Assembly: GCA_027010265.1 (NCBI GenBank)
Contig: JALVCE010000074.1
Span: 17,269 to 81,268 of the forward strand
Direction of reading: 5' to 3'
DNA from: Chromatiales bacterium
GTDB taxonomy: Bacteria > Pseudomonadota > Gammaproteobacteria > SZUA-152
DNA: 64,000 bases
The notes under the pieces are model-generated. The model had not been told where the DNA came from. It ran no database searches and saw only the letters and a program-made list of their open reading frames with translations. The translations under genes and the position numbers were made by a program. How positions within the stretch are numbered: position 1 is the first letter of the stretch; each line of letters opens with the position of its first letter. Below are positions 917 through 31,394 of this stretch, one piece after another.

Positions 917-932
917 TGTGACAAGCCGCACA
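917..932. promoter_or_regulatory. CRP/Vfr/Clp-type box (9/10 match)
   Basis: TGTGA-CAAGCC-GCACA about 85 bp upstream of the ATG at 1018; TAGTAT (-10-like) at 951-956. Confidence 0.5.
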
Positions 933-1017
933 GCAAATGACGCTAGGCTGTAGTATTCCTATTCCTAGGGTAGTGCGCATGGGCGCGGCGGGATTTTATC
1001 AGGAGCAGGGTGTTGGT

Positions 1018-3888
1018 ATGCGTTTTGGCGGTAATTCATTGAAATTCAAGAAATCGTGTTTACAGCGAGGGTTGGGTGCCGCCCTCCTGCTGGGGGTGTT
1101 GGCCGGTTGCACTCAGGGGCAGGATCAGACCATCCCCGATTTCGCCATTGCCTACGTCAAGCGCCCGGTTCAGCTTGAGACCCAAACGGTCACGGTGACG
1201 GTCAATGGCACCGATATGGACGTGGACATCCTGGCGCCGGTGGATCCGGATGTGCGCGAGGCCACGGAATTCAATGAGGGCGGTGATGTGTACCTGCGTG
1301 AGCGGGCCTCTACCATTGCCGAGGAACGCAACATCACCCTGTGTATCACGGATCTCGATGGTGACGGTATCGGCACCGGTGATGTGCGGGATCTTGAGAC
1401 CAATTATGACGGCACCAAACTGATCTTCTCCCTGCGCCTGGAGGATCTCACCAATGGCAACAATCCGCCCAAGTGGGATATCTACGAATACGATACCACA
1501 GTGGGCGGTTGTCCCCGGCGGGTGATCAGTGATGATCTGGCCGCTGCCAAGGGCGATGATGTGGCCCCCCATTACCTGCCTGACGGACGCATCGTCTTCA
1601 GTTCCAATGCGGCGGTGACCACGCGCCAGGTGGAACTGGATGCCGGCAAGAGCCAATTCTCTCCCTTTGACGAAGACTTGCGCGAGGCCGCGGTGACCCT
1701 GCATGTGATGGACGCCGATGGCACCAATATCAAGCAGATCTCCTTCAATCAGAGTCACGACCTGGACCCCTCGGTGCTGAGCAGTGGTGAGATCGTGTTC
1801 TCCCGCTGGGACGGCGCTGGCAACCGTAGCGCGATTCGGCTTTACACCATCCACCCGGATGGCACCGAACTCAAGGCGCTGTATGGCATCCATGAGGCCA
1901 ATGTGGGTACCGGTGGCAGTACCGTGCAGTTCCTTGATCCTCGCGAATTGAGTAACGGAAAATTGCTAGCCATGTTGAAGCCCTTCAACGGCTCCGCTGG
2001 CGGCGGTGCGCCGGTGGAGATCGACATCAGCAATTACGCGGACAACAGCCAGCCCACGGTCCCCAATCTCGGTATGCTCACTGGACCGGGACAGAGTCAG
2101 GCTATCAATCTGGATGTGCGCACCGACGGTAGCATTTCTCCCGCCGGTCGCTATCGTTCGGTGTATCCCCTGGCGGACGGCAGCAATCGCGCCCTGGTGA
2201 GCTGGTCGCAGTGCCGCCTGCAGCCCACGGATTCACTGGGTTTGCCCGATACCACGCAGCTTCCGGTGCCTTGCCCGGACACCATCAATCCGGGCGACTG
2301 GGAAGCCTATCCCCTGTATGGCATTTATGTGTTCGATTTTACCGAGGATACCCAGCTGCCTGTAGTGATCCCCGAGGAAGGCATTCTCGTGGACGAACCC
2401 GTGGTGCTCGCGCCCCGTCCCCGTCCCACGGTATTGCTGGACAAGGTGGTGGGTCTGGAGCTGGATCAGGCCCTGGCGGAAGAGGAATTTGTGGGTATTT
2501 TGCATATCCGCAGCGTGTATGACTTCGACGGCACTTTCAACGCACTGGGAGGCTCCGCAGCGAGCTTGGATGACATGGCCAATCCCACCCTCACCGATGC
2601 CGATCAGCGTCCGGCCCGTTACCTGCGGATCCTCAAGGCGGCAGCGATTCCCGACCCGCGGGACAATACTACCGAGTTTGATACCGGCGTGGCCTTCGGT
2701 GCCGGTGGTCGTCGCGGCGGCATGCGTGAGATCATCGGCTATGCGCCCATTGAACCTGATGGCTCGGTGATGACCAAGGTGCCCGCCAACGTACCCCTGG
2801 CCATCGAGGTGGTGGACAAGAACGGCCGCCGCATTGGTGCGCGCCATCTGAACTGGATACAGGTGCGAGATGGCGAAACCCTGGAATGTAACGGCTGCCA
2901 CACACACACTACCACGGCGCCGGCACTGCCCGTGCCCCATGGTTATAGAGATGCCCCCACGCCACTCAACAGCGGGGCACCTACGTCCCCATACACCTTT
3001 CCCGGTACCAATGGCACCTTCGTGGCCGAGATGAACGAAACCATGGCCGAGGCGCGCATCCGTGTGAGCTGCACCAATGCCAGCTTTGTCTACGACAAAC
3101 GCGATACCGGTTGCCCGGAATTGAGTCCCAATCCCAACCCGGTGTTCTTTGACCTGTGGGCCCCCGCGGGTAACGCCATCGCAGACGACCTGAGTCTGCG
3201 ATATAGCAACCTAGACGTGTCTATGGCCAACGGCGTACCCATCGACAACCAGTGCATCCCCGGCGCCATCCCGGGGGCCAAGTGGGATTTCACCTGCCGC
3301 ACCATTATCAATTACGAGAAGAGCATCCACCCCCTATGGAGTCTGCCGCGGACAGACACCGCCACGGGCATGATGGATTACACCTGTACGGTGTGCCACA
3401 ACAATGTGGATACCGGCGGCGCGCCCATGGTGCCCGCGGCCCAACTGGATCTTAGCGATGGTCTGCGCCAGGACAACCCCGATCATTTCAAGGCCTATCG
3501 GGAGCTGCTGATCCAGGATGACGTCCAGTGGCAGCTGGATGGCACCGGCGCCCTGGTGCCGGTAACACAGCAGGTGCAGTTGGTGATTGATGGTGTGCCG
3601 CAATTTCAAACCATGGATGACGGCATGGGCAACCAGGTGCCGGTATTGGATGCCAATGGCGATCCGATACCCATTCTGGTGACAGAAAATGTACCGCCCA
3701 CCCAGGGGCCCACCATGTCGGTCAATGGGGCCCTGGCCAGCGCCGCCTTCTTTGATCGCTTTGTGAATACCGGGCAGGGCGATTTGCACGAGGGGCTGTT
3801 GACCCCTGCGGAGTTGCGATTGCTGTATGAATGGCTGGATATGGGCGCGCAATATTTCAACAACAGCTTTGACGCACCACCGCCATAA
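1018..3888 (+). CDS. Large lipoprotein: TolB/PD40-like beta-propeller, HZS-alpha middle-domain-like region, two c-type haem motifs
   Basis: Lipobox LAG|C. Propeller motifs (DVAPHYLPDGRIVFSS, QISFNQSHDLDPSVLSSGEIVFSRWD). GYAPIEPDGSVMTKVPANVP followed by CNGCH; second motif CTVCH. Start moved to ATG 1018. Confidence 0.8.
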   Translation: MRFGGNSLKFKKSCLQRGLGAALLLGVLAGCTQGQDQTIPDFAIAYVKRPVQLETQTVTVTVNGTDMDVDILAPVDPDVREATEFNEGGDVYLRERASTIAEERNITLCITDLDGDGIGTGDVRDLETNYDGTKLIFSLRLEDLTNGNNPPKWDIYEYDTTVGGCPRRVISDDLAAAKGDDVAPHYLPDGRIVFSSNAAVTTRQVELDAGKSQFSPFDEDLREAAVTLHVMDADGTNIKQISFNQSHDLDPSVLSSGEIVFSRWDGAGNRSAIRLYTIHPDGTELKALYGIHEANVGTGGSTVQFLDPRELSNGKLLAMLKPFNGSAGGGAPVEIDISNYADNSQPTVPNLGMLTGPGQSQAINLDVRTDGSISPAGRYRSVYPLADGSNRALVSWSQCRLQPTDSLGLPDTTQLPVPCPDTINPGDWEAYPLYGIYVFDFTEDTQLPVVIPEEGILVDEPVVLAPRPRPTVLLDKVVGLELDQALAEEEFVGILHIRSVYDFDGTFNALGGSAASLDDMANPTLTDADQRPARYLRILKAAAIPDPRDNTTEFDTGVAFGAGGRRGGMREIIGYAPIEPDGSVMTKVPANVPLAIEVVDKNGRRIGARHLNWIQVRDGETLECNGCHTHTTTAPALPVPHGYRDAPTPLNSGAPTSPYTFPGTNGTFVAEMNETMAEARIRVSCTNASFVYDKRDTGCPELSPNPNPVFFDLWAPAGNAIADDLSLRYSNLDVSMANGVPIDNQCIPGAIPGAKWDFTCRTIINYEKSIHPLWSLPRTDTATGMMDYTCTVCHNNVDTGGAPMVPAAQLDLSDGLRQDNPDHFKAYRELLIQDDVQWQLDGTGALVPVTQQVQLVIDGVPQFQTMDDGMGNQVPVLDANGDPIPILVTENVPPTQGPTMSVNGALASAAFFDRFVNTGQGDLHEGLLTPAELRLLYEWLDMGAQYFNNSFDAPPP

Positions 3889-3958
3889 CTTTTTGCCGGT
3901 TTGGTGGTCACATAGGCTGGCGGCTGGTTGTGATGTTTGACAGCCAGTAAGATAATCC

Positions 3959-4001
3959 CGCGAAACCAGGAACTACAGGGGGTTCCTGGTTTCGCGTTTT
4001 T
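3959..4001 (+). terminator. Putative intrinsic terminator
   Basis: CGCGAAACCAGGAAC...GTTCCTGGTTTCGCG followed by TTTTT, downstream of the 1018..3888 gene. Confidence 0.65.
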
Positions 4002-4072
4002 GCTTGTCCGGTTGAGATGCAGTCTGCCGGTTTCGAATCCCCTTCAATTTTCAACCGATGATTTCGTTGGCG

Positions 4073-4088
4073 CGTGATCCCCATCACA
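4073..4088. promoter_or_regulatory. CRP-type box (9/10 match)
   Basis: CGTGA-TCCCCA-TCACA in the intergenic region upstream of the operon starting at 4214. Confidence 0.5.
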
Positions 4089-4213
4089 GGCCGTGACATC
4101 AACGTGGCGTAAAAACTAAATAACAATAAAGAAACTGGGCGCTTAGCCGTTGATTTAATAGTGAAAATCCAAGCCACAACAAACCATCCGGAAAACCACC
4201 CAAGGGTCGGCGC

Positions 4214-4963
4214 ATGAAAGCTGATTGGATGCGTGCAGGCCTGTGTGCTTTGTTGTTGCTGGCCACAAGCTGGGCCTGGGCCGAGGAGGAGGCCTATCCG
4301 GAGGTGAAGGTCGCCGAGCCTTACATTGAGATGCACACGGGCCCCGGTGCCGGCTATCCGATTTTTAACGTAGTGGATCGCGGCGATTATGTGGAGGTGA
4401 TCAAACGCAAGACGGATTGGTTCAAGGTGCGCACCAGCGATCACAAGATTGGCTGGGTGAATCGCGCCCAAATGGAAATGACCCTAACGCCAAGTGGTGA
4501 GCCAACAGCGTTCGCCGATGCAGGCCTGGGTGATTTCAGCAAGCGTCGTTGGGAAATGGGCCTGGTGGGTGGCACATTCAACGGGGCGCCGGTGATGACC
4601 TTGTATGGCGCCTATGCTTTGTCGGCCAACCTGTCGGCGGAGTTGTCCGCCTCGCAAGTGACCGGTGATTTTTTCAGCAGTGATCTGATAAACATCAACC
4701 TGCTGACGCAGCCATTCTCGAAGTGGCGTTATTCACCATTTTTCACCCTGGGGGTAGGGCAGATCACCACCAGCCCCAGTGTGACCCTGATCCAGACGGC
4801 AGACAGCCAGGATCTGATTGCCCACATGGGGCTAGGCTTCAAGATGTATCTGACCCGGCGCTTTATTTTACGCGCGGAATATAAAACCTACGTCGAGTTT
4901 TCCAGCGACGACGACAACGAGGAATTTGAAGAATGGAAGGCAGGCTTCGCATTCTTTTTCTAA
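4214..4963 (+). CDS. SH3-domain plus outer-membrane beta-barrel protein
   Basis: Signal peptide AWA; bacterial SH3-like segment YIEMHTGPGAGYPIF...DWFKVRT...GWV; amphipathic strands ending in C-terminal Phe (AFFF). Confidence 0.8.
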   Translation: MKADWMRAGLCALLLLATSWAWAEEEAYPEVKVAEPYIEMHTGPGAGYPIFNVVDRGDYVEVIKRKTDWFKVRTSDHKIGWVNRAQMEMTLTPSGEPTAFADAGLGDFSKRRWEMGLVGGTFNGAPVMTLYGAYALSANLSAELSASQVTGDFFSSDLININLLTQPFSKWRYSPFFTLGVGQITTSPSVTLIQTADSQDLIAHMGLGFKMYLTRRFILRAEYKTYVEFSSDDDNEEFEEWKAGFAFFF

Positions 4964-5592
4964 GCCGCCCCGTATTGGGTGTGGTGCTGCTTTTTCTAAG
5001 CACAGCGGCATGGTCAGCGGACAAGGTAGCGTCCCAGGCACAGGTGATCCAGCCGCAGATTGAGCGGCGAGTTATCGATGTGGACAAGATCGATACGGAA
5101 GACTTCGAGATCGGGGTCTTTTCCGGCTTACTCAGCACCGAAGATTTTGGTACCAACCTGGTGATTGGCGCACGTGCCGCCTATCACGTCACCGAAGGTA
5201 TCTTTTTTGAAGCCGCCTATGCCAAGTCGAATACCACTGAAACCAGCTATGAGCGCCTCAGTGGTGGCGCACCATTGTTAACAGATGCGCAGCGTGAACT
5301 GACCTACTACAACGTTTCCATTGGATACAACCTGCTGCCGGGAGAAGCATTCCTGGGTGAAGGCTGGGCCTTCAATACGGCGTTGTATGTGATCGGTGGT
5401 GTGGGGATTACCAGTTTTGCCGACGACGACCGGTTCACCGTCAACTTCGGGGCCGGATACCGTTTTTTGGCCACAGACTGGCTGGCGGTGCATCTGGATG
5501 TGCGCGATCACATTTTTGATATTGACTTATTGGGCAAGGCCAAGACTGCCCACAATCTGGAGCTTACCGGTGGGCTCACCGTGTTTTTTTAA
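4933..5592 (+). CDS. OmpA-like outer-membrane beta-barrel (GltA/B/H-like type)
   Basis: Signal peptide; 8-strand-type pattern (GARAAYH, YNVSIGYNLLPGE, NFGAGYRF); C-terminal FF. Overlaps the upstream gene by 31 nt. Confidence 0.8.
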   Translation: MEGRLRILFLSRPVLGVVLLFLSTAAWSADKVASQAQVIQPQIERRVIDVDKIDTEDFEIGVFSGLLSTEDFGTNLVIGARAAYHVTEGIFFEAAYAKSNTTETSYERLSGGAPLLTDAQRELTYYNVSIGYNLLPGEAFLGEGWAFNTALYVIGGVGITSFADDDRFTVNFGAGYRFLATDWLAVHLDVRDHIFDIDLLGKAKTAHNLELTGGLTVFF

Positions 5593-5686
5593 CGGCATAA
5601 CGACGTGTTGTGTATTGGCGTAACAGCGAGGTAGTGTGATGAAAAGTGTTATGAAATGTGTATTGAGTAATTTGCAAGGCAAGGTG

Positions 5687-6172
5687 ATGAAATCCATCGT
5701 ATTGCTGGTCATAGGTATGTTGTTCTCGGCAAGCATACAGGCAGAGGAAATTCAGGGTCCAGCACCGGATTTCACCCTGAAATCCCGCAGTGGTGAGAAT
5801 ATCAAACTCAGTGAGCTGCGTGGTGATGTGGTGATGATCAACTTCTGGGCTTCCTGGTGTGCACCTTGCCGCCAGGAGATGCCGCTACTGGAAGATATGT
5901 ATAAAAAATACAACGATCTCGGTTTTACACTGCTGGGGATCAATGTTGAGGAGGACTCCAGTAAGGCAGGTGAATTGTTACGTGAAATACCGGTGACCTT
6001 CCCGGTTCTTTACGACACCACCAACAAGGTGACAAAACTCTATAACGTGGTAGCCATGCCCAGCACGGTGATAGTGGATCGTGATGGCAATATGCGTTAT
6101 CTGCATCGTGGCTATCTTCCGGGCTACGAGGAAGAGTATGTCAAACAAATAAAGACATTGATTCGGGAGTGA
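5687..6172 (+). CDS. TlpA/ResA-family periplasmic thioredoxin
   Basis: APDFTL...INFWASWCAPCRQEMP motif; signal peptide from ATG 5687. Confidence 0.92.
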   Translation: MKSIVLLVIGMLFSASIQAEEIQGPAPDFTLKSRSGENIKLSELRGDVVMINFWASWCAPCRQEMPLLEDMYKKYNDLGFTLLGINVEEDSSKAGELLREIPVTFPVLYDTTNKVTKLYNVVAMPSTVIVDRDGNMRYLHRGYLPGYEEEYVKQIKTLIRE

Positions 6173-6399
6173 ATGGAGCGATGAGAAGGCTGTTTGCAGT
6201 GATAGTCTTGATGCTGCTGCTTTCGGGCTGTGGAATTCAGCCCTGGGTGAAACCTTATGAGCGCGCTAATCTGGCAGACCCGATCATGAGTTTCAGCCGT
6301 GATCCGGTAGCCAGCGCCTATATCAATCACGTCTTCGAAGCCCGTGAAGGTGCGCGTGGTGCCGAGGGTGGTGCAGGTGGTGGCTGTGGTTGCAACTAG
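6169..6399 (+). CDS. DUF4266-type small lipoprotein
   Basis: Lipobox LSG|C; VKPYERANLADPIM; characteristic C-terminal GGGCGCN. Confidence 0.88.
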   Translation: MNGAMRRLFAVIVLMLLLSGCGIQPWVKPYERANLADPIMSFSRDPVASAYINHVFEAREGARGAEGGAGGGCGCN

Positions 6400-7561
6400 A
6401 CTCACGCGATTCGTAGAGAAATTACCGGCGGTAAATTTTCGTTGGGGATTGGTGATGGCTGGTGCACTTGGCATGTGTGTGCCACTGATGGCCGCCGTAT
6501 TGCCGGAGGATCGGGCTGATGCCATGTATCATTCCTATTCCGGTGGCGGGCTGGAAGTGAACGGGCCTTCGATCCTGGCACGTAAATCCATTGGTAAGCA
6601 TGTCTCGGTATGGGGGAATTATTATGTGGACAGCATTACCTCGGCTACCATCGATGTCGTGACCAGCGCCAGCCAGTACACGGAAGAGCGTACCGAACAA
6701 ACCCTGGGTGCTGACTATCTCCACGACAATACCACCATGAGCCTTTCCTATACCAGTAGTATCGAAAATGACTTCGATGCCAAGGCCATGAACTTCAGCA
6801 TCAGCCAGTTGATGTTTGGTGATCTCACCACGGTTACCCTGGGCTATGCCCGTGGCTGGGACATCATAACCGCCACCGGATCGCCGAATTTTGAAGAAGA
6901 GGCAAATCGCCAGAAATACAAACTGGGACTGTCGCAGGTGTTTAGCAAAAACCTGCTCATGGATTTGAGCTTCGAGACTATTACCGATGAGGGTTATCTC
7001 AACAATCCTTATCGCTCCGTGCGCTATCTGGTGGACCCCACCAGTTACGCTACCGAAGGTGAAGTGTACCCCAACACCCGCACCAGTCATGCTGCTGCGG
7101 TGCGTGCCTTGTATTACCTGCCATACCGGGCGGCGATACGAACTGAGGTACGCGGCTACACAGACACCTGGGGTATCAATGGCGTGATGGCAGAACTGGG
7201 TTATATTCATCCAACGAAAAATGGCTGGACATTTGAAGGAAGCTATCGTGTTTACTCACAGGACAGCGCCAGTTTTTACAGTGATTTGTTCAATGCCCCC
7301 AATGAATTCATATATCGCGCGCGGGACAAGGAGTTAAGTGCGTACTCGACCCAGACCATTGGCTTTGGCGCCAGTTATGAATTTAAAAAACATGGCTGGG
7401 GTTTTATCGACAAGGGTAGTGCCAATATTTTTTATAACCATATTCAGATTGATTACGAAAACTTTCGTGACCTGCGGGTCACCGGCGTCACGCCCGGCAC
7501 CGAACCCCTGTACAGCCTGCAGGCCAATGTGCTGAGGCTGTTTATTTCGGTGTGGTATTGA
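6380..7561 (+). CDS. DUF3570-type outer-membrane beta-barrel protein
   Basis: VLPEDRADAMYHSYSGGG, VDSITSATIDVVTSAS, GYLNNPYRSV, RARDKELS motifs; aromatic C-terminus; follows TlpA-DUF4266. Start uncertain (GTG 6380 or ATG 6455). Confidence 0.85.
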   Translation: MAVVATRLTRFVEKLPAVNFRWGLVMAGALGMCVPLMAAVLPEDRADAMYHSYSGGGLEVNGPSILARKSIGKHVSVWGNYYVDSITSATIDVVTSASQYTEERTEQTLGADYLHDNTTMSLSYTSSIENDFDAKAMNFSISQLMFGDLTTVTLGYARGWDIITATGSPNFEEEANRQKYKLGLSQVFSKNLLMDLSFETITDEGYLNNPYRSVRYLVDPTSYATEGEVYPNTRTSHAAAVRALYYLPYRAAIRTEVRGYTDTWGINGVMAELGYIHPTKNGWTFEGSYRVYSQDSASFYSDLFNAPNEFIYRARDKELSAYSTQTIGFGASYEFKKHGWGFIDKGSANIFYNHIQIDYENFRDLRVTGVTPGTEPLYSLQANVLRLFISVWY

Positions 7562-7606
7562 CGATTATTTTATTGAACATAAAAACAAGGCCCTGATGCG
7601 AGTGCA

Positions 7607-8206
7607 ATGATGAAAAAATTCCAATTGAAATTATGGCTGTGTCTGCTGCTGTTCCTTGTGCCGGTGATCGGCCAAGCGGAAGATGCGGAGCCCACGGCGA
7701 TCAATCCCTATGTGCGAACTCCGGCGCCTGCGGCACAGACCAGCCCGCCTGCCCCGGATAACCGCACCCTCGATCAACGGGTACAGGATTTGAAGAAAGA
7801 AGTGAAGGCCTTGAATCGTGACCTGTTCATTCTTGAAGAGGAACTATTGTTTCCGTCCAGCACCCAACTGGCAGTGTTTTTGTCCGTTGATGTGGGCGAA
7901 TTTTTCCGCCTGGATTCCGTGCAGCTGAAAATAGACGACAAGGTGGTGGCCAATCATCTTTACACCAAACGTGAATTGGGTGCCTTGAAACGCGGCGGTG
8001 TGCAGCGACTATACATCGGTAACGTCAAAGCCGGTGAGCATGAGTTGATTGCCACCTTTCGTGGCCCGGGGCCCAACAACCGGGAATACCGTCGCGGCAC
8101 GACGGTGAAGTTCAAGAAGGGTTCGGCGGCAAAATTCATGGAGCTGCGTATCGTGGATGCCACACGAAAACTTCAGCCCGAGTTCGTGGTCAAAGAATGG
8201 GAATGA
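7607..8206 (+). CDS. Exported coiled-coil plus beta-sandwich hypothetical protein
   Basis: Signal peptide; LKKEVKALNRDLFILEEELLFP coiled coil; GGVQRLYIGN motif; no HTH. Confidence 0.75.
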   Translation: MMKKFQLKLWLCLLLFLVPVIGQAEDAEPTAINPYVRTPAPAAQTSPPAPDNRTLDQRVQDLKKEVKALNRDLFILEEELLFPSSTQLAVFLSVDVGEFFRLDSVQLKIDDKVVANHLYTKRELGALKRGGVQRLYIGNVKAGEHELIATFRGPGPNNREYRRGTTVKFKKGSAAKFMELRIVDATRKLQPEFVVKEWE

Positions 8207-8219
8207 CTGTACGGGGATA

Positions 8220-10112
8220 ATGGTGTTTTCATTCAGGTCGTTTCGTTGTTTGCTGCTTTTGCCCGGTGCGTTATTGGCGCTGCCAGTGATGGCCAGCGCA
8301 CCACTGCCACAGGCTGTGGAAGATCCCCACTATGGGGTAGTGCTGTATGAATTTTATCAGCAGAATTATTTTTCCGCCGCGGTAAATCTGCTGACCGCTC
8401 AGCAACTCAAACGCCTCAAGCATCACGAGGACGATGCGGAGATCCTACTGGGCGGCCTGTATCTCTCCTATGGCTTGCACAGCGAAGCCGAAGAAATCTT
8501 CAAGCGTCTGCTGGACAAGCGGGCGTCACCTTCCGTACGCGACCGAGCCTGGTTTTACCTGGGCAAGATCCGTTATCAGAAACAATTGTTCCCTGAAGCC
8601 GAGGCGGCTCTGGCCCAGGTAGGCGAAGCACTTGACCCTTCCTTGCAGGAAGAATTTCGCACCCTCAAGGCCAATCTGTTGATGGCGCAGAAGAAATACA
8701 CCGAAGCAGCAGAGGCCCTGCAGGGACTGGTGGAAGATGACGACGAGGAGGAAGCCAATTATGCGCGCTTCAACCTTGGTGTGGCGCTGATACGTGCCGG
8801 CCGGGAAAAGGAGGGTGCCGATCTGCTGCGCCAGGTAGCCGAACTGAAGTCCAGCGCCAGCGATCAAAAGGCCCTGCGTGACAAGGCCAACCTGGTACTG
8901 GGATTTTCCCTGTTGAAGTCCGCGCCGGTACTGGCCAAGGATTTCTTTCGCCGGGTACGTTTGAACGGGCCTTATTCCAACAAGGCGTTGTTGGGTCTGG
9001 GCTGGGCCGAAGTGGAGTTGCAACGTTACGAACAGGCACTGGTGCCCTGGGATGAACTGGCGACCCGGGAAAAAACCGATCCCGCGGTGTTCGAGGCCAT
9101 GCTGGCGCGTGGTAATGCACTTGAGCGGTTGCGCGCCTTTCCACAGGCCATGCGAGCCTACAGTAATGCCATTGTTGTCTTTGAACAGGAACTGGCCGCA
9201 TTGAACAGTACTGTGGCGGCAGTTAAGGCAGGACGTCTTTGGGCGGACCTGTTGTCGCAGGTTTCACGGGATGAGATGGGCTGGTTCTGGGAAGCCGAGT
9301 TATTGCCCGACACACCCGAGGCAAAATATTTGCCCACGGTAATGGCAGGGCATGGTTTTCACGAGGCCATCAAGAATCTGCGTGACCTGTGGTTCCTGGA
9401 CAGAAACCTGGCGCGCTGGTCCACGGAGGTGCCGGCATTACAAGACATGCTAGCCTTGCGCCGTACAACCTACGAAGACCAACTTGACAAGCTCACCCCG
9501 GAGCAGACTCTGAGCCATGTGCTGGATGTGCGCACCAGCCGGGACATCTACGCCGATGAATTGAAACGCATCGGAGAATCCGGGGATGCCTTTGCCCTGT
9601 TGAGTGGTGAAGAACAAAAACGCATGCAGCGGTTGGCCCGTGTGGAAGAACGCATCTGGCGTCTGTCCAGTCAGCCAGGGCGTCACAGCCGGCGATTGGC
9701 ATCCTGGCGGGAGAAATATCGCCTGTATAAGGGGCTGCTGGATTACGATGTTGAAACCACCTTTGCGATTCGTTATCGCAAGGTTCAGAAGAGTCTCAAT
9801 TCCCTGGATGCAGAACTGGAAGAAACGCTGCGCCGGCAGAATTCCCTGCAACGTGTGAGAGCCACCGCACCGGCGAACTTTGCTGGTTATGCCCAAGATA
9901 TTGAAAACAAGCGTCAGCGCATTGTCGGCCTGCGCAAAGATATCAAGGCAGCCTTTGATGAACAGCAGCGCCAATTGCAGTCCATGGCGGATGTGGAGCT
10001 GGATCGGCTGCGCCTGCGCCTGGTGGACTATCTGGATCAGGCACGCTTTTCCTTGGCACATTTGCAGGACCTGGCCACCGATGCGGCTGAATCGGGCAAG
10101 GAGCTGAAATGA
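8220..10112 (+). CDS. Periplasmic TPR/coiled-coil protein (GltC-like)
   Basis: Signal peptide; TPR motifs (RDRAWFYLGKIRY, YARFNLGVAL, ALLGLGWA); coiled-coil C-terminus. Confidence 0.8.
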   Translation: MVFSFRSFRCLLLLPGALLALPVMASAPLPQAVEDPHYGVVLYEFYQQNYFSAAVNLLTAQQLKRLKHHEDDAEILLGGLYLSYGLHSEAEEIFKRLLDKRASPSVRDRAWFYLGKIRYQKQLFPEAEAALAQVGEALDPSLQEEFRTLKANLLMAQKKYTEAAEALQGLVEDDDEEEANYARFNLGVALIRAGREKEGADLLRQVAELKSSASDQKALRDKANLVLGFSLLKSAPVLAKDFFRRVRLNGPYSNKALLGLGWAEVELQRYEQALVPWDELATREKTDPAVFEAMLARGNALERLRAFPQAMRAYSNAIVVFEQELAALNSTVAAVKAGRLWADLLSQVSRDEMGWFWEAELLPDTPEAKYLPTVMAGHGFHEAIKNLRDLWFLDRNLARWSTEVPALQDMLALRRTTYEDQLDKLTPEQTLSHVLDVRTSRDIYADELKRIGESGDAFALLSGEEQKRMQRLARVEERIWRLSSQPGRHSRRLASWREKYRLYKGLLDYDVETTFAIRYRKVQKSLNSLDAELEETLRRQNSLQRVRATAPANFAGYAQDIENKRQRIVGLRKDIKAAFDEQQRQLQSMADVELDRLRLRLVDYLDQARFSLAHLQDLATDAAESGKELK

Positions 10113-13018: not shown

Positions 13019-13328
13019 CACGTACACAAAAAAATTGTCAATCCTCCAATGCCTGTTTGCCTTTTGCCTGTGGTTGCTGCCGCTTGGCTACTTGATGGCC
13101 GAGGTGAAACTGGAGCTGGAGGAGACGGAGATTACCGGTGCCCGTGAATTACCCAAGGTGTTGTACATTGTGCCGTGGAAAAAAACCGCGCCGGATGCAC
13201 GCCCCCTGCCCATGAAAAGCATGATGAATGAAGTGCTGGAGCCCATTGATATGGATGTTTTCCGGCGCCAGGTGCGTTATTTCGAGTTCACCCATCCGGC
13301 CCCTGATCCGCAAGCAGCCCCACAATAG
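13005..13328 (+). CDS. Small exported protein (GltF/CglF-like)
   Basis: Signal peptide followed by LEETEITGARELPKVLYIVPW; follows the TPR genes. Confidence 0.65.
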   Translation: MPLNSTYTKKLSILQCLFAFCLWLLPLGYLMAEVKLELEETEITGARELPKVLYIVPWKKTAPDARPLPMKSMMNEVLEPIDMDVFRRQVRYFEFTHPAPDPQAAPQ

Positions 13329-23879: not shown

Positions 23880-23901
23880 TTTGCTCAATGTTTTCAAGAA
23901 T

Positions 23902-24087
23902 GGCGCCGCCTGCGGTGTTCGACACTGTATCGGAATTTTCTTGGCCTATGCTTAACCCTGTTGGGGACATTACATCGGTGTTGTGTGCACGTCCGCGCCG
24001 CGGAAAGCCTGATACGCCGATTGTTGTGCCCACTTTATCGCTCCGGTCCCAAGAGCGACGATGCAACCGGCACGTGTGGGTGGCGCC
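23902..24087 (+). ncRNA. ssrS: 6S RNA
   Basis: About 185 nt between zapA and ygfA (canonical position); ends pair (GGCGCCGCCTGCGGTG / CACGTGTGGGTGGCGCC); central CGGAAAGCCT. Ends are approximate. Confidence 0.85.
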
Positions 24088-24707: not shown

Positions 24708-24801
24708 GGGCCCCTGTGGACGGGTGCAAAACGGGTGCAAAAAAGGCGATGTGTGTGCCGCACATCGCCTTTTATTGATCGTCTCAAAATAATTGTTATT
24801 G

Positions 24802-25053
24802 CACTGCTGTCCCACTAACCTCCATTTTGTTTTGATGGGGTTGGTGAAGTCATTGGGGAGCAGAGAGATTGGCGAAATCTAAGACATGAATATTGCTGCT
24901 CTTTATTCCGTCATCCCGGCGAGGGCCGGGATCCAGTAACTCATTGACACCACTGGATTCCGGCTTCGGCAACTGCTCCTGCGTTGCTCTACCTCCTGCA
25001 TCCATGCAGTCGTTCGCCGGAATGACGAATCTCAAGTTAATGGGACAGCAGTG
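24802..25053. mobile_element. MITE-like element (252 bp) with 18-bp terminal inverted repeats
   Basis: Left end CACTGCTGTCCCACTAAC; right end GTTAATGGGACAGCAGTG (17/18 match); TTG on both flanks; no transposase. Confidence 0.75.
24909..25027. repeat. CGTC-type REP interrupted by a ~44-bp insert
   Basis: CGTCATCCCGGCGAGGGCCGGGATCCAG...CTGGATTCCGGCTT[insert 24967-25012]TTCGCCGGAATGACG; compare the intact copies at 47879 and 57607. Confidence 0.8.
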
Positions 25054-25076
25054 TTGTTACAGGGTTATTTCCTCCG

Positions 25077-25127
25077 TGTGGGAGCGCCTTTCCAGGCGCG
25101 AATCCCGCCTGGAAAGGCGCTCCCACA
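25077..25127. repeat. GTGG/GTAG-type REP doublet (REPIN-like)
   Basis: TGTGGGAGCGCCTTTCCAGGCGCGAATCCCGCCTGGAAAGGCGCTCCCACA; near-identical copy at 62812. Confidence 0.85.
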
Positions 25128-25215
25128 GCATTTGGCATGGTATAAGTGCGCCATGGGATTAGGGCCTGTTAAAGCAAACTTGAGACCCTCAGAAATTTCC
25201 GGATCCTGCCCCCAC

Positions 25216-26865
25216 TCAGCGGATGGGGTCAAAGGCCGTGAGGCTCATCATGTGTGCATCGGTGCCCAGGTCGTTGTTGGGGAACAGGCTGCGATAGACG
25301 TTGCGGTAATCGGTGCCATGCAAGGCCAGGTAATTGAGCACCACGGTGTCCACCAGCAGGTTGACGTTGTTGGCGGCTACGGAGGAAGCGGTTTCCACTG
25401 AGCCGTCGGCGCGGAACCAGCCGAGCTGCTGATGACGTTCCGGGCCCAGGGTGTCGCCGCTGAACAGTGTGGCTTGTCCGCCATTTTCCGTGGGGTTGTA
25501 GACTAGGAAAAAGGCGCCGGCGGTGGAAGAGTTGTCGCCGGTCCACACACCCTTGCCGCGGCCATCTACCGAGCCGTCGGTGGAGCCATTGCTGGCAACG
25601 GAACCGTCGCTGAAGACATAAAGCATCAGGGGCATGCGCATGCGTGCGGCATATTCCAGGCAGGCGCCCATGCAGCGTCCGGCGCGCAGGTCGCGGCGTT
25701 CGCCGGTGGAACGGTCGCCGGTGTGGTAGTCGAAGCCCCCCATGGTGATGGTGCCGGCTCCGGCGTGACCATCGATGACCATTTTCATCACGGCGGCGGT
25801 TTTGCGGAATTCCCCTTCGTTGTCGAATTCATTCTGGTCGAAGATGGCATTGCCGCTGTTAGTGGGATCTACAATATTGCTGTCCGTGGCGGGATCCACG
25901 TCCACACCTACGAAGCGGTCGGCGATGTCCGCCGCATTGAGATAACCACAGTTCACCAGGTCTTTCACGACGGTGGCGGCATTGATATTCGCGACTTTCT
26001 TGTCGCTGAGGCGGGCGATGGATTCCATTACCGCCTTGGCGTCGGTTTCAGTCAACACGGCGGTGAGATCTCCGGTGTCCACCATGCCGGTAACGTCCGA
26101 GGGTCGATCAACCTTAGTGGGTCGGATGGAGGGGTCGATGCTGTCCGGCGGGGCCATGGAATTGCCGCCGGACTCGGAATTACGCGAGCCGATCAGCGTG
26201 ACCACGTCACCATCGGCGCCGGTGGCAGCGATGCGGTACATGGGGTTGTGCGGGTTGTTGCCGGTGTCATTGTCGGAACGGGCGGGAATCACGGCGCCGT
26301 TCACGAAGGGCGCGGTACCCGTGAGGCTGATTTTTTCCAGGATGCCGCGCAGAAAGCCGCTGTCGGAATGAAAGGGCAGGCCCAGGCGGGTGTCGATCCA
26401 GTCATTGTTGGGGCCACTCATGGCCGAGGCGGCGGCATCCACCACGCCGGGCACCATGTCGCCGGGAATGCCCATCTTGCTGTAGCCCGCGGCGCTGATG
26501 GGATCGTTGAGATAGCCGCCCTGACCTCCGGCTAGCACGTTGGAGCCGATGATGTTGGAGCCGCCGGCCAGATCAAAACAAATAAAAGGCACCTTGGTGC
26601 CAATGGCACCCAGGGAGCAGCCGGGGAGGCTGTTGGCCAGGGTGCTCAGATCCGATGACAGGGCCGCCTGCGCGGCACGCGGATTAGTGAACAGACTGAA
26701 TACCGAGCCGCCGAGGGTGATGCCTGCGCCGGTGAGAAAGCCCTGACGCAGGAAGTCCCGTCGCGTCACCGGGCGCTTGTGATCCTGATGCAGCAGGGGT
26801 GCATCGGGTGAGAGCCCGTGGCGATTCTTCTTCAGGCGTCGCGCGGTGGATGTTTTCTTGGCCAT
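25216..26865 (-). CDS. Tat-exported protein (DUF1501/DUF1552-like motifs)
   Basis: Twin-arginine signal VTRRDFLRQG...AAQA; FICFDLAGG, GGFDYH and YVFSDG motifs reminiscent of DUF1501-type proteins. Confidence 0.75.
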   Translation of the reverse strand: MAKKTSTARRLKKNRHGLSPDAPLLHQDHKRPVTRRDFLRQGFLTGAGITLGGSVFSLFTNPRAAQAALSSDLSTLANSLPGCSLGAIGTKVPFICFDLAGGSNIIGSNVLAGGQGGYLNDPISAAGYSKMGIPGDMVPGVVDAAASAMSGPNNDWIDTRLGLPFHSDSGFLRGILEKISLTGTAPFVNGAVIPARSDNDTGNNPHNPMYRIAATGADGDVVTLIGSRNSESGGNSMAPPDSIDPSIRPTKVDRPSDVTGMVDTGDLTAVLTETDAKAVMESIARLSDKKVANINAATVVKDLVNCGYLNAADIADRFVGVDVDPATDSNIVDPTNSGNAIFDQNEFDNEGEFRKTAAVMKMVIDGHAGAGTITMGGFDYHTGDRSTGERRDLRAGRCMGACLEYAARMRMPLMLYVFSDGSVASNGSTDGSVDGRGKGVWTGDNSSTAGAFFLVYNPTENGGQATLFSGDTLGPERHQQLGWFRADGSVETASSVAANNVNLLVDTVVLNYLALHGTDYRNVYRSLFPNNDLGTDAHMMSLTAFDPIR

Positions 26866-26913
26866 GGTCTTGTCCTCAGTACGTCTGTCTGTTGCTGTTG
26901 TGTCAGTGTGGGC

Positions 26914-29688
26914 CTATTGAATGATCATCGCCGCGCTGCCCAGTACTGCGGTACACAGCGCCTTGACCACCGACGGGGTGCGTGCGGCATCATTGCTGCA
27001 ACTGGCGTCGGCCTGGCAGGCATTGTACAGGCGGTCGTACAGATTGCCCGGGTGGCCAGCCGGTGCGGCGGCATCATCGGGGCCCACCAGTTCGGTACGC
27101 AGTTCCGTGCGGCTGGGCATGTTGCTCAGCGAGACACCGCCGATACCCACCATCTTGTCGTAGAGGGCATCCACGATCTGGTTTTTCTCGGTGCTGCCAG
27201 CAAAGGCTGTGGCCACCGGTGAGTTGAAGGCGAAGCTGCCGAAGAAGTTGTCGCGCAACGTGGTGTCGTCCACCAATGCGTCACAGTAGGCGATGGCCAG
27301 TTGGGCCACGGCCATTTCATGGGCGGCGAGGAAGCCGTTGATATTCTCGTCGGTGGGCAGGGCCTGTTTGATGCCGGTGACGGTGCCGGTGCTTTCGTCG
27401 TAATAGGTTTTCAGCACCTTGGGGTGGCGCGCCGTGTCGTAGGGATCCACTCCGGTCATGGCTGACATGGAGGCGAGGATCTCCTCAAAGGTGCGCAGAC
27501 CCACTTCGGGTACAGGGGTACCATCTACGGCGGTGGTGGTGCAGGTGATGTTGCTGCCGCACACTTCGGGCACACGGGTATTCTGGTTGCCATCGATATC
27601 CTCGAAGGTGAGGAAGAACTCATCGCTCCCCGCGCCCTTTTGCAGTTCGATGATGGTGCCGGTGTTCGACAGCACCTGCTGACCGGTGGCAGTGTCAAAC
27701 GCGGTACCCCCCAGGGTGGTGTCGAGGTTGACGTAGGCCTGGCCCACCGAGGGTTCCTTGCCATTGAGTCCGATACGCATGCCCTTGATCACCGTGCCGC
27801 TGGGGGTGAAGGCCGGATTGAGGCTGAGGAAGGTGGGCTGGGTGAACAGATAGCTGTAGTTGTCGAACTGACTGGCGATGAAGTAAATGAAACACTGGTG
27901 CTCGCCGTTGACGATGCACTCGGGGTTGTTGGCCTGCATTAGCTCGCTGACACTGAACAGCAGGTAGAATTTCTGGCCCACGCCGGCATCGAAATTCTGT
28001 TGCACCTGGCTGGGTGTCATGGCGCGGTTGTGGATGGCCACCAAGCGCAGTTTGCCTTCCCAGGGCTCGCTGAAGTCTGCCTCGTTGCCCATGCTGAAGG
28101 CGTAGGTGGGATCCCAGTTGATCAGGTTGCCCGGGGGGAGCAGGGGATCCACATCGGCATTGCCGGTGGTGGAGACGTCCACACCGTTCACATAGACTTT
28201 ACGCCCGGTCGTTTGATCAAAGGTGACCACCACGTGTTGTTGGGTGGATTGCAGGTCTTCATCCGCATCATCGGTGAGCATGGTGTTGCCGTTGGCGCTG
28301 GCCTCGGCGGAGCTGCGATTCATGAAGGCGTAGCGGTATTCGGCCTGTCCCAGGGTGAAATTGCGCTCATTGGCGCCACCGGAATAGTTGATGATGCGTG
28401 CCGGGTCATTGGCATCGCCTTGAGAGATATTGGCGGGAACCACCCAGGCCTCGATGGAATAGGCGCTGCTGCCAAGGATGGAGGTGAGCAGCTTACGGCT
28501 GTCTTGCGTGGTGGCCTGGGCCTTGGCGCTGCCGGTGAGGAATTCCACACCCCAGCCGCCTACCCAACGATAGTCCGTACCCTCGTTGCCATAGAGCTTG
28601 AGATTCAGGGGTACGCCCACGCCGCTGGTGTCATAAATAGTGGTGCCGGAGCCGGCCTTGAACTCATACAGGGCGATGGTGCTGGAATCGTCCCGGGTGC
28701 CGCCGCTGGCGACGATGCCGTCCAGCAGGGTCAGTGCCTTGCTGACCTTCCAGCTGGCGTCCACCGCGGTGGTGGTGATGGTGCCGGCAAAGGCCTCGAT
28801 GGCCTGCTGCATGAGAATGGCACAGTTCTTACGGCCCTCGGTAACGGCCTGTTGCAGGGTGCTGCTGAGATCCCAGCAGTTGTGGCCCTCGTCCATGCGC
28901 GCCACCAGGCGGGAATCCCGCGGGGTGTCCAGGCTGATCTTCTGACTGGCGACGATAGCGGCGTAGGAGACATCGCGGTCGGTGTCGGCAAAGAAGGGTG
29001 TTTGCGGGACCGAGGCGGACTCGGTGTGACAATTGACACAATACTGGGTTAACAGGCTGTGCACGCCGTCATAACCGGCGGGGGCGGTGGCGGGAAAGTT
29101 CTTGCTTTGCCCCGTATCCTTGATGGTGGGTGAGCTGAGGGTTATCACATTGGTCTGGCTGCCCGTGCCGGCGCCGGCCACACCGCCGTTGGCCCAATTG
29201 GTGATGTAGGTGGTGGCGTTGGTGGCCAGGGTGCTGCAGGCACTGGGACTGCCGCAGTTGTGGCCGTTGTTGATCCTGGTGATGATGGCGGAGTTAGCCG
29301 GATTGGATTTGTCCACCAGATTGCGGCTGATCACCTGGCCGTAGGCGGTGTTGATGTCCGCGGTATCCATGAAATAGGGTTCCTGGCTGCCGGTTTCGGT
29401 GTTGTGGCAGTTCTCGCAATCGGCGGCATCGAGCATCTTGGCCCAGAATTCGGTCTGGAAATTGCAGATGTCTTCCACGGTATTGGGATCGGTGCTGACT
29501 TCGTTACAGGCCTGGCCGGTGTAGGCCGCGGCGCTGGTGCCGCTGCCGCCGCCAGTCACGGAAGGCGCCTGGGGGACGCTGTCACAGGCCGAGAGCAACA
29601 GGCCACTGAACAGGAGGGTCAGCGTCCACCCGGCCTGACGGCGGGCATGGTGAATGGCGCGGGGAGTGGTACGGCTTGGATTGTTCAT
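26914..29688 (-). CDS. Lipoprotein with two c-type haem domains and a LamG/concanavalin-A-like domain
   Basis: Lipobox LSA|C; CENCH and CVNCH, each followed about 50 aa later by GHNC; LamG motifs (YSIEAWVVP, QHVVVTFD...KVYVNG, WEGKLRLVAIHNRAMT). GGAG RBS supports ATG 29688. Confidence 0.82.
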   Translation of the reverse strand: MNNPSRTTPRAIHHARRQAGWTLTLLFSGLLLSACDSVPQAPSVTGGGSGTSAAAYTGQACNEVSTDPNTVEDICNFQTEFWAKMLDAADCENCHNTETGSQEPYFMDTADINTAYGQVISRNLVDKSNPANSAIITRINNGHNCGSPSACSTLATNATTYITNWANGGVAGAGTGSQTNVITLSSPTIKDTGQSKNFPATAPAGYDGVHSLLTQYCVNCHTESASVPQTPFFADTDRDVSYAAIVASQKISLDTPRDSRLVARMDEGHNCWDLSSTLQQAVTEGRKNCAILMQQAIEAFAGTITTTAVDASWKVSKALTLLDGIVASGGTRDDSSTIALYEFKAGSGTTIYDTSGVGVPLNLKLYGNEGTDYRWVGGWGVEFLTGSAKAQATTQDSRKLLTSILGSSAYSIEAWVVPANISQGDANDPARIINYSGGANERNFTLGQAEYRYAFMNRSSAEASANGNTMLTDDADEDLQSTQQHVVVTFDQTTGRKVYVNGVDVSTTGNADVDPLLPPGNLINWDPTYAFSMGNEADFSEPWEGKLRLVAIHNRAMTPSQVQQNFDAGVGQKFYLLFSVSELMQANNPECIVNGEHQCFIYFIASQFDNYSYLFTQPTFLSLNPAFTPSGTVIKGMRIGLNGKEPSVGQAYVNLDTTLGGTAFDTATGQQVLSNTGTIIELQKGAGSDEFFLTFEDIDGNQNTRVPEVCGSNITCTTTAVDGTPVPEVGLRTFEEILASMSAMTGVDPYDTARHPKVLKTYYDESTGTVTGIKQALPTDENINGFLAAHEMAVAQLAIAYCDALVDDTTLRDNFFGSFAFNSPVATAFAGSTEKNQIVDALYDKMVGIGGVSLSNMPSRTELRTELVGPDDAAAPAGHPGNLYDRLYNACQADASCSNDAARTPSVVKALCTAVLGSAAMIIQ

Positions 29689-29740
29689 GGTCATGCTCCA
29701 GAAAAACCTTTTGTTAGTCTCGGCCCGGTAATGCCGTGCG

Positions 29741-30973
29741 TTAGTTGCCCTTGCAGAATGCGGCGGAGTCGGCAAATACCTGTTTCAGTTTGTGGCCATT
29801 GCCCTGAAAGGTATTGATCATGGTGTTGATCTGGTCTCGGTCGCTCTGATCCACAGGGCCACGCAGGCAGACCGCCTTGAAGACTTTCTCCACCTGGCAG
29901 CGGGCGAAGGCGTCGCTGTGCGCCAGTTCCTGCCCCATGGAGGCGGCACCGCTGCCACTGCCCGGCAGGGCTCCATCCCATCCCAGGGCGCTGTTGCTGC
30001 CGGTGCGCCAGTAGTTGTCCCAGTTATCGTTGGGGGTGACAAAACCGTACTCAAAATTGCTGCTGTTTTGCAGGTACTTGGGCTGCACGCTGCCGGGGGT
30101 GTAGACCAGTTGGCCGGCGTCATAATTCGGGTCGCCATTGCCATCCAGCGGATAGCTGTAGTCATAGTAGGCGAAGGCCTGGGTCATGGGGTCCATGCCG
30201 CTATGGCAGCCAACACAAGCGTTCATGAAGATGCGGCTGTCACCACCGGGGCTGCGTGAGACGTCCTGGCGGATACGATCCGGCGGGTAGCTGGGGTCCT
30301 TTACCTGTTCCATGTCCTTGCACAGGTGGTTGAGCATGGTGAAACGGAACATGGCGCGATTGGTGCCGTCCACGAAAAAGGCCTTGGCGGCGGCGCGGCT
30401 GGTGAGCACCCCGGCGGGGGCGGCGAGGCCCGTGGCCGCGGACTGGGTGGTGCGGGTAAGCACGGCCTGCAGGTCGGCGCCCGAGTCTTCCAGCGCCTTG
30501 TAATGGCTGTTACCGGTGGTCAAAACCGCAGCGCTGGGATTGCCCGGGCCGGTATAGAGGACGTCATCGTAAAGGATCTTGCGGAAGTCATCGTCGTCCC
30601 GGATGATACCTATCACCGTGGCAGTGTAGTCATTGAGTGGGGCGAAGACGGTCTGTTCTTCATTGGTCCAGGGAGTGATGAAGTTTTTCAGAGTCACACG
30701 ATAGAAATCGGCGCCGATGCAGGCGTCCGTGCCGCCATCGTTGGTGATGGCGTCCATCGCGGCGCCGGCGGCATCGTTGGCGATGACCTTGGTTTCCAGT
30801 TGATCCAGGCAGGCGGCGCTAGGAGGGGTGCCCACCAGGCGGTCATGAATACGCTTGGCCTGTTCGCGCGTACCCGCCAGGGTGTTGCCGGCGGCCAGCA
30901 CAGACATCACCAGTGCAAGACTGACGCCAGCGGTTCGTTGCGCAAAAGAGAGTGGGGAATGTTGTGTACTCAT
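29741..30973 (-). CDS. Exported mono-haem c-type protein (DUF1585-like C-terminus)
   Basis: Signal peptide; CVGCH; C-terminal GQELAHSDAFARCQVEKVFKAVCLR. Confidence 0.78.
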   Translation of the reverse strand: MSTQHSPLSFAQRTAGVSLALVMSVLAAGNTLAGTREQAKRIHDRLVGTPPSAACLDQLETKVIANDAAGAAMDAITNDGGTDACIGADFYRVTLKNFITPWTNEEQTVFAPLNDYTATVIGIIRDDDDFRKILYDDVLYTGPGNPSAAVLTTGNSHYKALEDSGADLQAVLTRTTQSAATGLAAPAGVLTSRAAAKAFFVDGTNRAMFRFTMLNHLCKDMEQVKDPSYPPDRIRQDVSRSPGGDSRIFMNACVGCHSGMDPMTQAFAYYDYSYPLDGNGDPNYDAGQLVYTPGSVQPKYLQNSSNFEYGFVTPNDNWDNYWRTGSNSALGWDGALPGSGSGAASMGQELAHSDAFARCQVEKVFKAVCLRGPVDQSDRDQINTMINTFQGNGHKLKQVFADSAAFCKGN

Positions 30974-31378
30974 GATGTGCATCCTTAAAACGGGACTGGG
31001 TGAAAACGGCTGGGTGTTCAGGCGTGGCGATGCCGGCGTTGGCGCCGCAGTGCATGAGAAGTGTGTGTAACTGCTTGTTGTGTGTACCGCATGTGTATCT
31101 ACCCCTATTCGTTACCTTCTCGTTACCGACAGTTGCCGTATTGTTGTTAATGGCATGCTTTACTGCTTGTTCTCTATTCTCATTCTCACTTTTTCAGGAC
31201 GCCTTTTTTGTCTGTAGCGGCCCGATGGCGTCTCAATCTGCGCAGAACATCACGTTTTAGCGCTTTGGGCACGGTCTTTTTTCTGCCTGGGCCCCGGCTA
31301 TTCAACGTCAGCTTTTGGGGCGCTGCGCCACGCCTTGTGTGCGTGTCTCACATGCTCCGGGAAAACCGACAGAAACAC

Positions 31379-31394
31379 TGTGATGAGGGTCACA
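31379..31394. promoter_or_regulatory. CRP-type box (perfect match)
   Basis: TGTGA-TGAGGG-TCACA in the ~590-bp non-coding region upstream of the locus B operon. Confidence 0.65.

Follow-up and report, generated by a model that had tools for sequence, protein, structure and literature searches.

Candidate CRP/Vfr-type operators before four transcription units in a 64-kb stretch of a marine gammaproteobacterial genome

Introduction

The closest known case to the system described here is the control of type IV pilus genes by cyclic AMP (cAMP) and Vfr in Pseudomonas aeruginosa, in which cAMP-Vfr directly activates the fimU-pilVWXY1Y2E operon (Coggan et al. 2022, PMC8787478). Our subject is a stretch of 64,000 nucleotides (nt) from a Chromatiales bacterium (assembly GCA_027010265.1, contig JALVCE010000074.1), called the window in what follows, and four intergenic palindromes in it that fit the motif TGTGA-N6-TCACA with at most one mismatch. 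We refer to these CRP-type boxes, which start at positions 917, 4073, 31379 and 50236, as P1 to P4. What the genome shares with the P. aeruginosa Vfr regulon is a regulator closest to Vfr, a pilin gene with a conserved site, targets at the surface and in the envelope, and a class I adenylate cyclase. It differs in that the pilus is of the mannose-sensitive haemagglutinin (MSHA) type, that the site stands before a lone pilin gene instead of a minor-pilin operon, and that the biogenesis operon has a sigma-54-type promoter without a site. Moreover, the host is an uncultured marine gammaproteobacterium, and the system is known from its sequence alone.

In Escherichia coli, promoters that depend on cAMP-CRP have two canonical geometries, class I with the site at -61.5 and class II with the site at -41.5. 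The boxes in the window have the same 16-bp TGTGA-N6-TCACA core, and three of them have a predicted spacing of about -41.5 and the fourth one of -61.5. Unlike in E. coli, the targets are envelope, pilus and redox genes rather than genes of sugar catabolism, and the start sites are predicted ones. Type IV pilus promoters can also depend on sigma-54, as does that of pilA with RpoN and PilR in Pseudomonas. Here, too, a GG-N10-GC element, conserved within the genus, precedes the first pilus gene, and rpoN is present, but the element stands before the biogenesis operon instead of the major pilin gene.

An original prediction made from this DNA had described two groups of genes, locus A (a "haem-propeller" gene and a barrel/TPR operon) and locus B (the MSHA pilus), as a split system whose three transcription units are all preceded by CRP-type boxes, and had concluded that the two loci are one regulon under a CRP/Vfr-type factor. 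In the literature excerpts that a search on CRP control of MSHA pili returned (PMC8938473 and PMC11980369), MSHA was confined to the reference lists. Listings for Thiogranum together with cAMP consisted of ecological papers only, and the term "camp" also matched longer words.

Results

CRP-type sites are enriched in intergenic DNA

We searched the window for TGTGA-N6-TCACA, with 100 dinucleotide-preserving shuffles as the null. Two perfect copies were found (31379-31394 and 50236-50251), compared with a shuffle mean of 0.08, and none of the 100 shuffles reached two. When one mismatch was allowed, there were six copies and 1.87 were expected, and again none of the 100 shuffles reached the observed number; with up to two mismatches there was no excess (21 copies, 24.8 expected). 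The pattern search thus recovered the four boxes with the coordinates and sequences that the original prediction had given for them, and both perfect copies lie in intergenic DNA, as it had said; its estimate of about 0.06 perfect cores per 64 kb was also about right. The one-mismatch copies are 917-932, with GCACA as the right half, 4073-4088, with CGTGA as the left half, and two that we regard as chance matches:

15456 to 15471: one-mismatch match inside a Na+/H+ exchanger gene
29025 to 29040: one-mismatch match inside a LamG-domain gene

One-mismatch sites are commonplace in coding DNA, where 56 were counted genome-wide.

The genome is a 3.27-Mb assembly of 162 contigs, which we divided into intergenic and coding DNA with a crude codon-bias gene map of our own (2684 genes, 83% coding). 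It contains 13 perfect sites, 11 of them intergenic by this map, where a first-order Markov simulation and an analytic estimate gave 0.43-0.47, so that the enrichment is about 25-fold. Coding DNA holds 2 perfect sites (2.6 expected). Intergenic sites with one mismatch are enriched two-fold (29 observed, 13.8 expected), and those with two mismatches occur as expected (201 observed, 206 expected). Because of this enrichment, a perfect intergenic site is almost certainly functional, and for a one-mismatch intergenic site, taken by itself, the odds are about even.

As a guard against picking motifs by eye, we scanned every one of the 5120 pentamer palindromes (spacers 4-8), among which TGTGA-N6-TCACA ranked 28th (P 4e-12). 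The palindromes that ranked above it were mostly overlapping registers of GC-rich repeats resembling repetitive extragenic palindromes (REP-like repeats). This intergenic family, built around CGCCT-N4-AGGCG, has 213 intergenic copies, with 136 copies that fit a longer pattern, and is represented in the window at about 25073-25110 and at 62807-62844. The palindrome GCACA-N4-TGTGC is also frequent in intergenic DNA (13 copies, 0.68 expected) and may be the site of another regulator.

Four conserved boxes and their predicted promoters

With a probability of roughly 0.8, we read the four intergenic boxes as operators of a cAMP-dependent, CRP/Vfr-type activator dimer, each placed before an activator-dependent sigma-70 promoter of its own. 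The boxes, the predicted promoter elements and the genes that go with them are:

917 to 932: box P1, TGTGACAAGCCGCACA, one mismatch, centre 93.5 nt upstream of ATG 1018
951 to 959, plus strand: predicted -10-like element TAGTAT / TATTCC, starting 26.5-29.5 nt from the P1 centre, with a conserved GTAGTATTAATG block in the alignments
1018 to 3888, plus strand: gene for a protein with an HZS_alpha middle domain, the haem-propeller gene (Pfam PF18582, E 9e-15)
3959 to 3996, plus strand: intrinsic terminator with a 16-bp stem and a T-run, which closes the HZS-like transcription unit
4073 to 4088: box P2, CGTGATCCCCATCACA, one mismatch, 133.5 nt upstream of ATG 4214
4110 to 4115, plus strand: predicted -10-like element TAAAAA, starting 29.5 nt from the P2 centre, with the pattern TA.A.A in relatives
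4214 to 13328, plus strand: operon for an SH3/outer-membrane (OM) barrel protein, an OM-barrel protein, a ResA-like thiol-disulfide oxidoreductase, a DUF3570 protein, an unknown protein, two long TPR proteins and a small open reading frame (ORF)
31379 to 31394: box P3, perfect, 404.5 nt upstream of the minus-strand gene 29741-30982
31352 to 31357, minus strand: predicted -10-like element GAGCAT, starting 29.5 nt from the P3 centre
25216 to 30982, minus strand: operon for a 413-aa conserved hypothetical protein (weak DUF1585), a 953-aa LamG-domain protein and a 549-aa unknown protein
50236 to 50251: box P4, perfect, 129.5 nt upstream of the pilin ATG 50373
50293 to 50298, plus strand: predicted -10-like element TAAACC in a conserved GCCGYTAAA block, starting 49.5 nt from the P4 centre (class I, -61.5)
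50373 to 50735, plus strand: lone type IV pilin gene, 120 aa, convergent with ntrC (Pfam N_methyl)

P1 would drive the gene for the di-haem HZS-like lipoprotein, P2 the SH3/OM-barrel/TPR operon, P3 the minus-strand operon 30982-25216 and P4 the lone pilin gene. At P1 to P3 the centre of the box would lie about 40 nt upstream of the predicted start, near -41.5, which corresponds to class II with the box in place of the -35 element; at P4 it would lie about 61.5 nt upstream, the class I geometry. We infer that the bound protein would activate transcription rather than repress it. A scan for consensus sigma-70 promoters gave no good match beside any of the four boxes, which fits activator dependence.

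We compared orthologous loci in the remaining 13 genomes of its genus (g1) and elsewhere in the family (32 family genomes), and all four boxes proved to be kept in related genomes. The majority-base frequencies, anchored on each box, were:

P1 (917): half-sites 0.93, spacer 0.72, flanks 0.63
P2 (4073): half-sites 0.97, spacer 0.53, flanks 0.63
P3 (31379): half-sites 1.00, spacer 0.65, flanks 0.74
P4 (50236): half-sites 1.00, spacer 0.67, flanks 0.53

The spacers have diverged among the relatives, so neutral positions have had time to change. Because the arms are invariant while the spacer drifts, and no compensatory changes are seen, the boxes have the character of protein-binding sites and not of RNA or DNA hairpins.

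P1 and the di-haem HZS-like gene

P1 was found at the aligned place, as a conserved TGTGAC-N5-TC[T/G]C[A/G] block, in all 11 genus relatives analyzed, with one mismatch in five, two mismatches in six and a perfect copy in none. It was also found in 12 of the 14 relatives analyzed from other genera; four further loci, in which the match started far inside the protein, were left out of this comparison. The left half, TGTGA[C/T], is invariant among the relatives, and the right half reads GCACA, TCTCG, TCTCA, TCGCA or TCGCG. Within this degenerate right half the two C positions alone never vary, and these are the main base contacts in CRP-DNA structures. As to the predicted -10-like element, TATTCC at 954 (TATTAA in relatives) overlaps TAGTAT, which starts three bases earlier.

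The HZS-like protein has 956 aa, a lipoprotein-type signal and two CXXCH motifs (residues 624 and 790). When it is read from ATG 1018, the closest orthologues align with it from residue 1, which makes this ATG the likely start, and P1 precedes it as the original prediction had proposed. The minus-strand gene gcvT is divergent from the HZS-like gene throughout the family, including 10 of the 11 genus loci (the eleventh ends at a contig edge), so that synteny cannot assign P1 to one gene or the other. Its assignment to the HZS-like gene therefore rests on distance and on the conserved -10-like block. A tandem glycine riboswitch (515-710, minus strand; Rfam, 61 + 42 bits) lies upstream of gcvT, which puts the gcvT start near 370 and leaves ORF 2..754 noncoding over about its first 128 codons.

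P2 and the SH3/OM-barrel/TPR operon

P2 likewise precedes the barrel/TPR operon, as had been proposed, and lies past the strong terminator at 3959-3996. All 12 genus relatives that have the SH3/OM-barrel gene carry the box at the aligned place with no more than one mismatch (nine perfect, three with one mismatch), 133-168 nt before the start codon and with a spacer that is different in each. Outside the genus, a one-mismatch box at about -96 was seen in two of five genomes and none in the other three.

Just 3' of the predicted P2 start, at 4121-4167 on the plus strand, there are two blocks, an A-rich ATAACAATAAAGAAAC and TTAGCCGTTGATTT.ATAGTGAAAA, which are almost invariant in the genus and much more conserved than the remaining leader. 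Possible explanations are an RNA element of the leader, an Hfq-type A-R-N tract and a second operator; Rfam gave no family match at the blocks.

P3 and the minus-strand operon

The original prediction had placed the box at 31379 before the operon of locus B. We could not uphold this link, since two minus-strand genes intervene and the -10-like block faces the minus strand. From P3 rightwards, up to and including the pilus operon, the features are:

31569 to 32726, minus strand: response-regulator/GGDEF gene, between P3 and the pilus operon (Pfam Response_reg and GGDEF)
32879 to 33670, minus strand: spermidine-synthase-like gene, directly divergent from the pilus operon (NCBIfam NF003380, E 8.8e-42)
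33805 to 33818, plus strand: sigma-54-type -24/-12 element GGCATGAAATTTGC, before the pilus operon
33944 to 50204, plus strand: MSHA-type type IV pilus operon (Pfam/NCBIfam)

Two plus-strand ORFs in this region, 31536-32231 and 32846-33688, matched no Pfam or NCBIfam family, whereas the minus-strand ORFs that overlap them do. We assign P3 to the minus-strand operon because, of the two sides of the box, it is the minus-strand one that has the conserved -10-like block, and because the gene map agrees.

A perfect P3 box stands upstream of the orthologue of gene 29741-30982 in all 10 genus relatives whose upstream sequence is long enough and in all seven genomes of genus g4; two further genus relatives end at a contig edge within 300 nt, and in more distant genera the picture is mixed. 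A CCGGAG.AT block is conserved across two genera at a fixed spacing from the box. The box and the ATG are about 400 nt apart in seven genus relatives and 150-215 nt apart in another four, and in this genome no convincing ORF was found in the stretch of about 360-400 nt between box 31379 and the start codon at 30982. The 413-aa protein has at least 8000 relatives, all of them unnamed. Near the response-regulator/GGDEF gene there is a terminator-like hairpin at 31423-31439, and directly before the start codon of the spermidine-synthase-like gene an inverted repeat, CACAATC-N7-GATTGTG, at 33675-33695.

P4, the lone pilin gene and the pilus operon

P4 lies within a longer palindrome, GAAACTGTGAC-N4-GTCACAGTTTC, with 11-bp arms. 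Among the seven genus relatives with a full-length orthologue of the pilin, six have a perfect box at the aligned place. Two pilin orthologues of genus g3 have no P4 box. It is box 50236, and not box 31379, that connects CRP-type control to locus B, through the pilin gene.

The pilus operon encodes a PilN-like protein, an MshL secretin, an AAA_22 ATPase, a TPR protein, an MshE-type ATPase, a PilC/GspF protein, pilins, a DUF6701 protein and a PilM-like protein. We place its start at GTG 33944, because alignment of the first gene's longest ORF with its orthologues begins near residue 47. We read this operon as transcribed from a putative sigma-54 promoter (a GG at -24 separated by ten bases from a GC at -12) that has no CRP box in this genome. 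The element GGCATGAAATTTGC is the sole perfect GGCAYG-N4-TTGC in the window, and none of the other promoters has a perfect match. In a 12-genome alignment its GG is kept in 9 genomes and its TGC in 11, and the genome has rpoN. Within 32457-37044, which includes the region upstream of the operon, there is no CRP-type match with two or fewer mismatches.

A one-mismatch box, such as CGTGAGCCACATCACA, occurs in seven of 11 genus relatives, where it precedes the -24 GG by about 42 nt. In six of these seven the operon is directly divergent from the GGDEF gene, without the spermidine-synthase-like gene in between, and in the seventh (G002) the neighbour is an orthologue of the minus-strand 413-aa gene. 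The pilus box is missing from this genome and from four relatives, and a 10-nt alignment gap falls there; three of these four relatives have the spermidine-synthase-like neighbour, as in this genome. The pilus machinery thus appears to belong to the regulon in some members of the genus and not in others, this genome being among the latter.

The pilus ATPase at 39596-41302 (plus strand) carries the MshE-type motif for binding cyclic di-GMP (c-di-GMP; NF053729, 77.5 bits). Together with the adjacent response-regulator diguanylate cyclase (31569-32726), this motif suggests that c-di-GMP controls pilus assembly, likely alongside cAMP control of the pilin gene.

The probable regulator and the source of cAMP

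The genome encodes three Crp/Fnr-type helix-turn-helix proteins. One of them (contig C142, 212 aa) is a CRP/Vfr orthologue, which matches Vfr most closely (E 1.7e-91) and E. coli CRP at E 2e-89, and which passes the NCBIfam CRP equivalog model NF008732 (352 bits, cut-off 266). In the alignment, the stretch of its DNA-recognition helix, RIVGCSREMVGRVLK, is identical to that of Vfr, and the GE, RS and TS positions, which we take to be cAMP contacts, are present. The orthologue was found in 26 of the 32 family genomes (E at most 1e-40), including all 17 of high quality, at 82-97% identity. A class I adenylate cyclase (PF01295, 424 bits) and two class III cyclase domains are also encoded. The second Crp-family protein (contig C75, 230 aa) has the helix ASREMVSR. 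The CRP/Vfr orthologue is the probable binder.

A one-mismatch box at contig C119:38754 lies 107 nt upstream of the gene for a 1563-aa protein with cNMP (cyclic nucleoside monophosphate)-binding and rhodanese domains. It is possible that this box forms a feedback link within cyclic-nucleotide signalling.

Other sites in the genome

Nine of the 11 perfect intergenic sites are outside both loci; seven have a candidate target within 600 nt, in each case an unrelated or unnamed gene, and two have no assigned target. The candidate target genes of the other genome sites, taken as 34 proteins, were scanned against Pfam. Perfect sites precede genes for a multicopper oxidase, FlgM, a paired-CXXCH multihaem cytochrome, a lytic transglycosylase (SLT), a JmjC/ROXA-like protein and several unknowns; at another, a LysR regulator gene is divergent from that of a Sel1-repeat protein. 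One-mismatch sites precede, among others, genes for a TSP3/PKD surface protein with a LuxR-type response regulator, an Ig-domain protein, MgtE and the 1563-aa cNMP-binding protein, as well as nuoA. Because these other high-confidence sites precede unrelated genes, the factor looks like a global regulator, and its targets appear to lean to envelope, surface and redox functions.

In the window there is also a 6S RNA gene (23904-24086, plus strand; Rfam, 86 bits), which adjoins a 5-formyltetrahydrofolate cyclo-ligase gene in the usual ssrS-ygfA arrangement.

Discussion

Several points weigh against our reading of the boxes as CRP/Vfr-type operators with promoters of their own. P1 and P2 each have a mismatch, and since about half of such intergenic sites in the genome are to be expected by chance, the support for these two rests on conservation; the relatives are kin, so the conservation counts are not independent and overstate the case. 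The right half of P1 is conserved in a non-consensus form (TCTCG/TCTCA), and its spacer is partly conserved too, which could mean that a different or an additional protein binds there. P3 lies 404 nt from the start codon and implies a leader of about 360 nt (30983-31351). In one genus relative (G004) the pilin orthologue has no box, not even within two mismatches. The -10 assignments are weak matches picked by conservation and spacing, and the crude gene map made at least two errors in the window (ntrB was missed), although it rightly preferred the spermidine-synthase-like gene.

That the palindromes are chance matches or structural hairpins, such as REP elements or terminators, is very improbable. 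The genome is indeed full of REP-like palindromes, the inverted repeat around box 50236 has arms of 11 bp, and one-mismatch sites show only the two-fold excess. Yet the roughly 25-fold enrichment of perfect sites is restricted to intergenic DNA, the arms stay invariant without compensatory changes while the spacers drift, and the flanks vary from copy to copy, which those of REP copies do not. Furthermore, none of the boxes is followed by a T-run, and their distance to the conserved -10-like blocks is fixed. If the boxes bind a protein, the choice lies between two members of the Crp family. Actinobacterial-type Crp/Fnr regulators bind the same TGTGA-N6-TCACA core, and the nearest solved transcription factors to the second protein, that of contig C75, are deposited as regulators of this type (3d0s, 3i54, 3r6s and 4byy; about 110-116 bits). 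Its helix retains the R-E-x-x-x-R (Arg-Glu...Arg) pattern, it is present in 31 of the 32 family genomes, and the conserved asymmetric box P1 could be its preferred site. We nonetheless think it unlikely that this protein, perhaps with another ligand, is the main binder of the boxes in place of the CRP/Vfr orthologue. It scores only 138 bits with the CRP equivalog model, well short of the cut-off, and it is less conserved in the family (55-89% identity) than its competitor, whose recognition helix is the same as in a protein known to have a matching site. Both proteins are near-universal in the family, so the phyletic pattern cannot choose between them, a further point against our reading.

The original prediction went beyond binding and took the boxes at 917, 4073 and 31379 to head three units of one split system, with loci A and B as a dedicated regulon of a CRP-family factor. 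Much of what it built on has held: the boxes are real, conserved and of genuine CRP/Vfr type, and two of the three do precede the units named. The window also holds 4 of the genome's 40 intergenic sites with at most one mismatch, about five times the average density, although contig C10 has a comparable cluster (4 sites in 36 kb). The part that fell is the third assignment, because two minus-strand genes stand between box 31379 and the pilus operon and the -10-like block of the box faces the opposite way. In addition, the operon has a sigma-54-type promoter of its own, and the stretch 32457-37044 contains no box with up to two mismatches. Some co-regulation of the two loci draws weak support from box 50236, which would drive the pilin gene at the end of locus B, and from the one-mismatch box about 42 nt upstream of the pilus -24 element in 7 of 11 genus relatives. 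However, further perfect sites stand before unrelated genes, so the targets are not limited to these loci, and a common global regulator does not define a system. We therefore hold a dedicated regulon of loci A and B to be improbable. A shared global cAMP regulator is weak evidence for the loci as one system, and the result does not establish that they are parts of one machine.

Our preferred reading, operators of a CRP/Vfr-type activator, supplies four predicted CRP/Vfr-dependent promoters that are experimentally addressable, in a lineage represented solely by metagenome bins. Among the targets are two gene sets whose function is unknown, one made up of the di-haem propeller gene and the barrel/TPR operon, the other being the LamG operon, and a probable cAMP switch narrows the conditions under which their function should be sought. 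The wrong link from box 31379 to the pilus operon is removed from the map, and the CRP box at the pilus promoter, which varies within the genus, is a small natural case of regulon rewiring. More tentatively, and with more doubt than confidence, we suggest that cAMP-CRP in this vent or sediment family, which has no obvious sugar-catabolite role for it, may run a conserved programme of surface colonisation, in which the uncharacterised di-haem beta-propeller lipoprotein, the OM-barrel/TPR module, the LamG operon and the MSHA pilin are expressed together, joined in many congeners by the pilus machinery beside a diguanylate cyclase. If so, the propeller/barrel module would be a functional partner of pilus-mediated attachment, and control by cAMP and control by c-di-GMP would meet at this locus.

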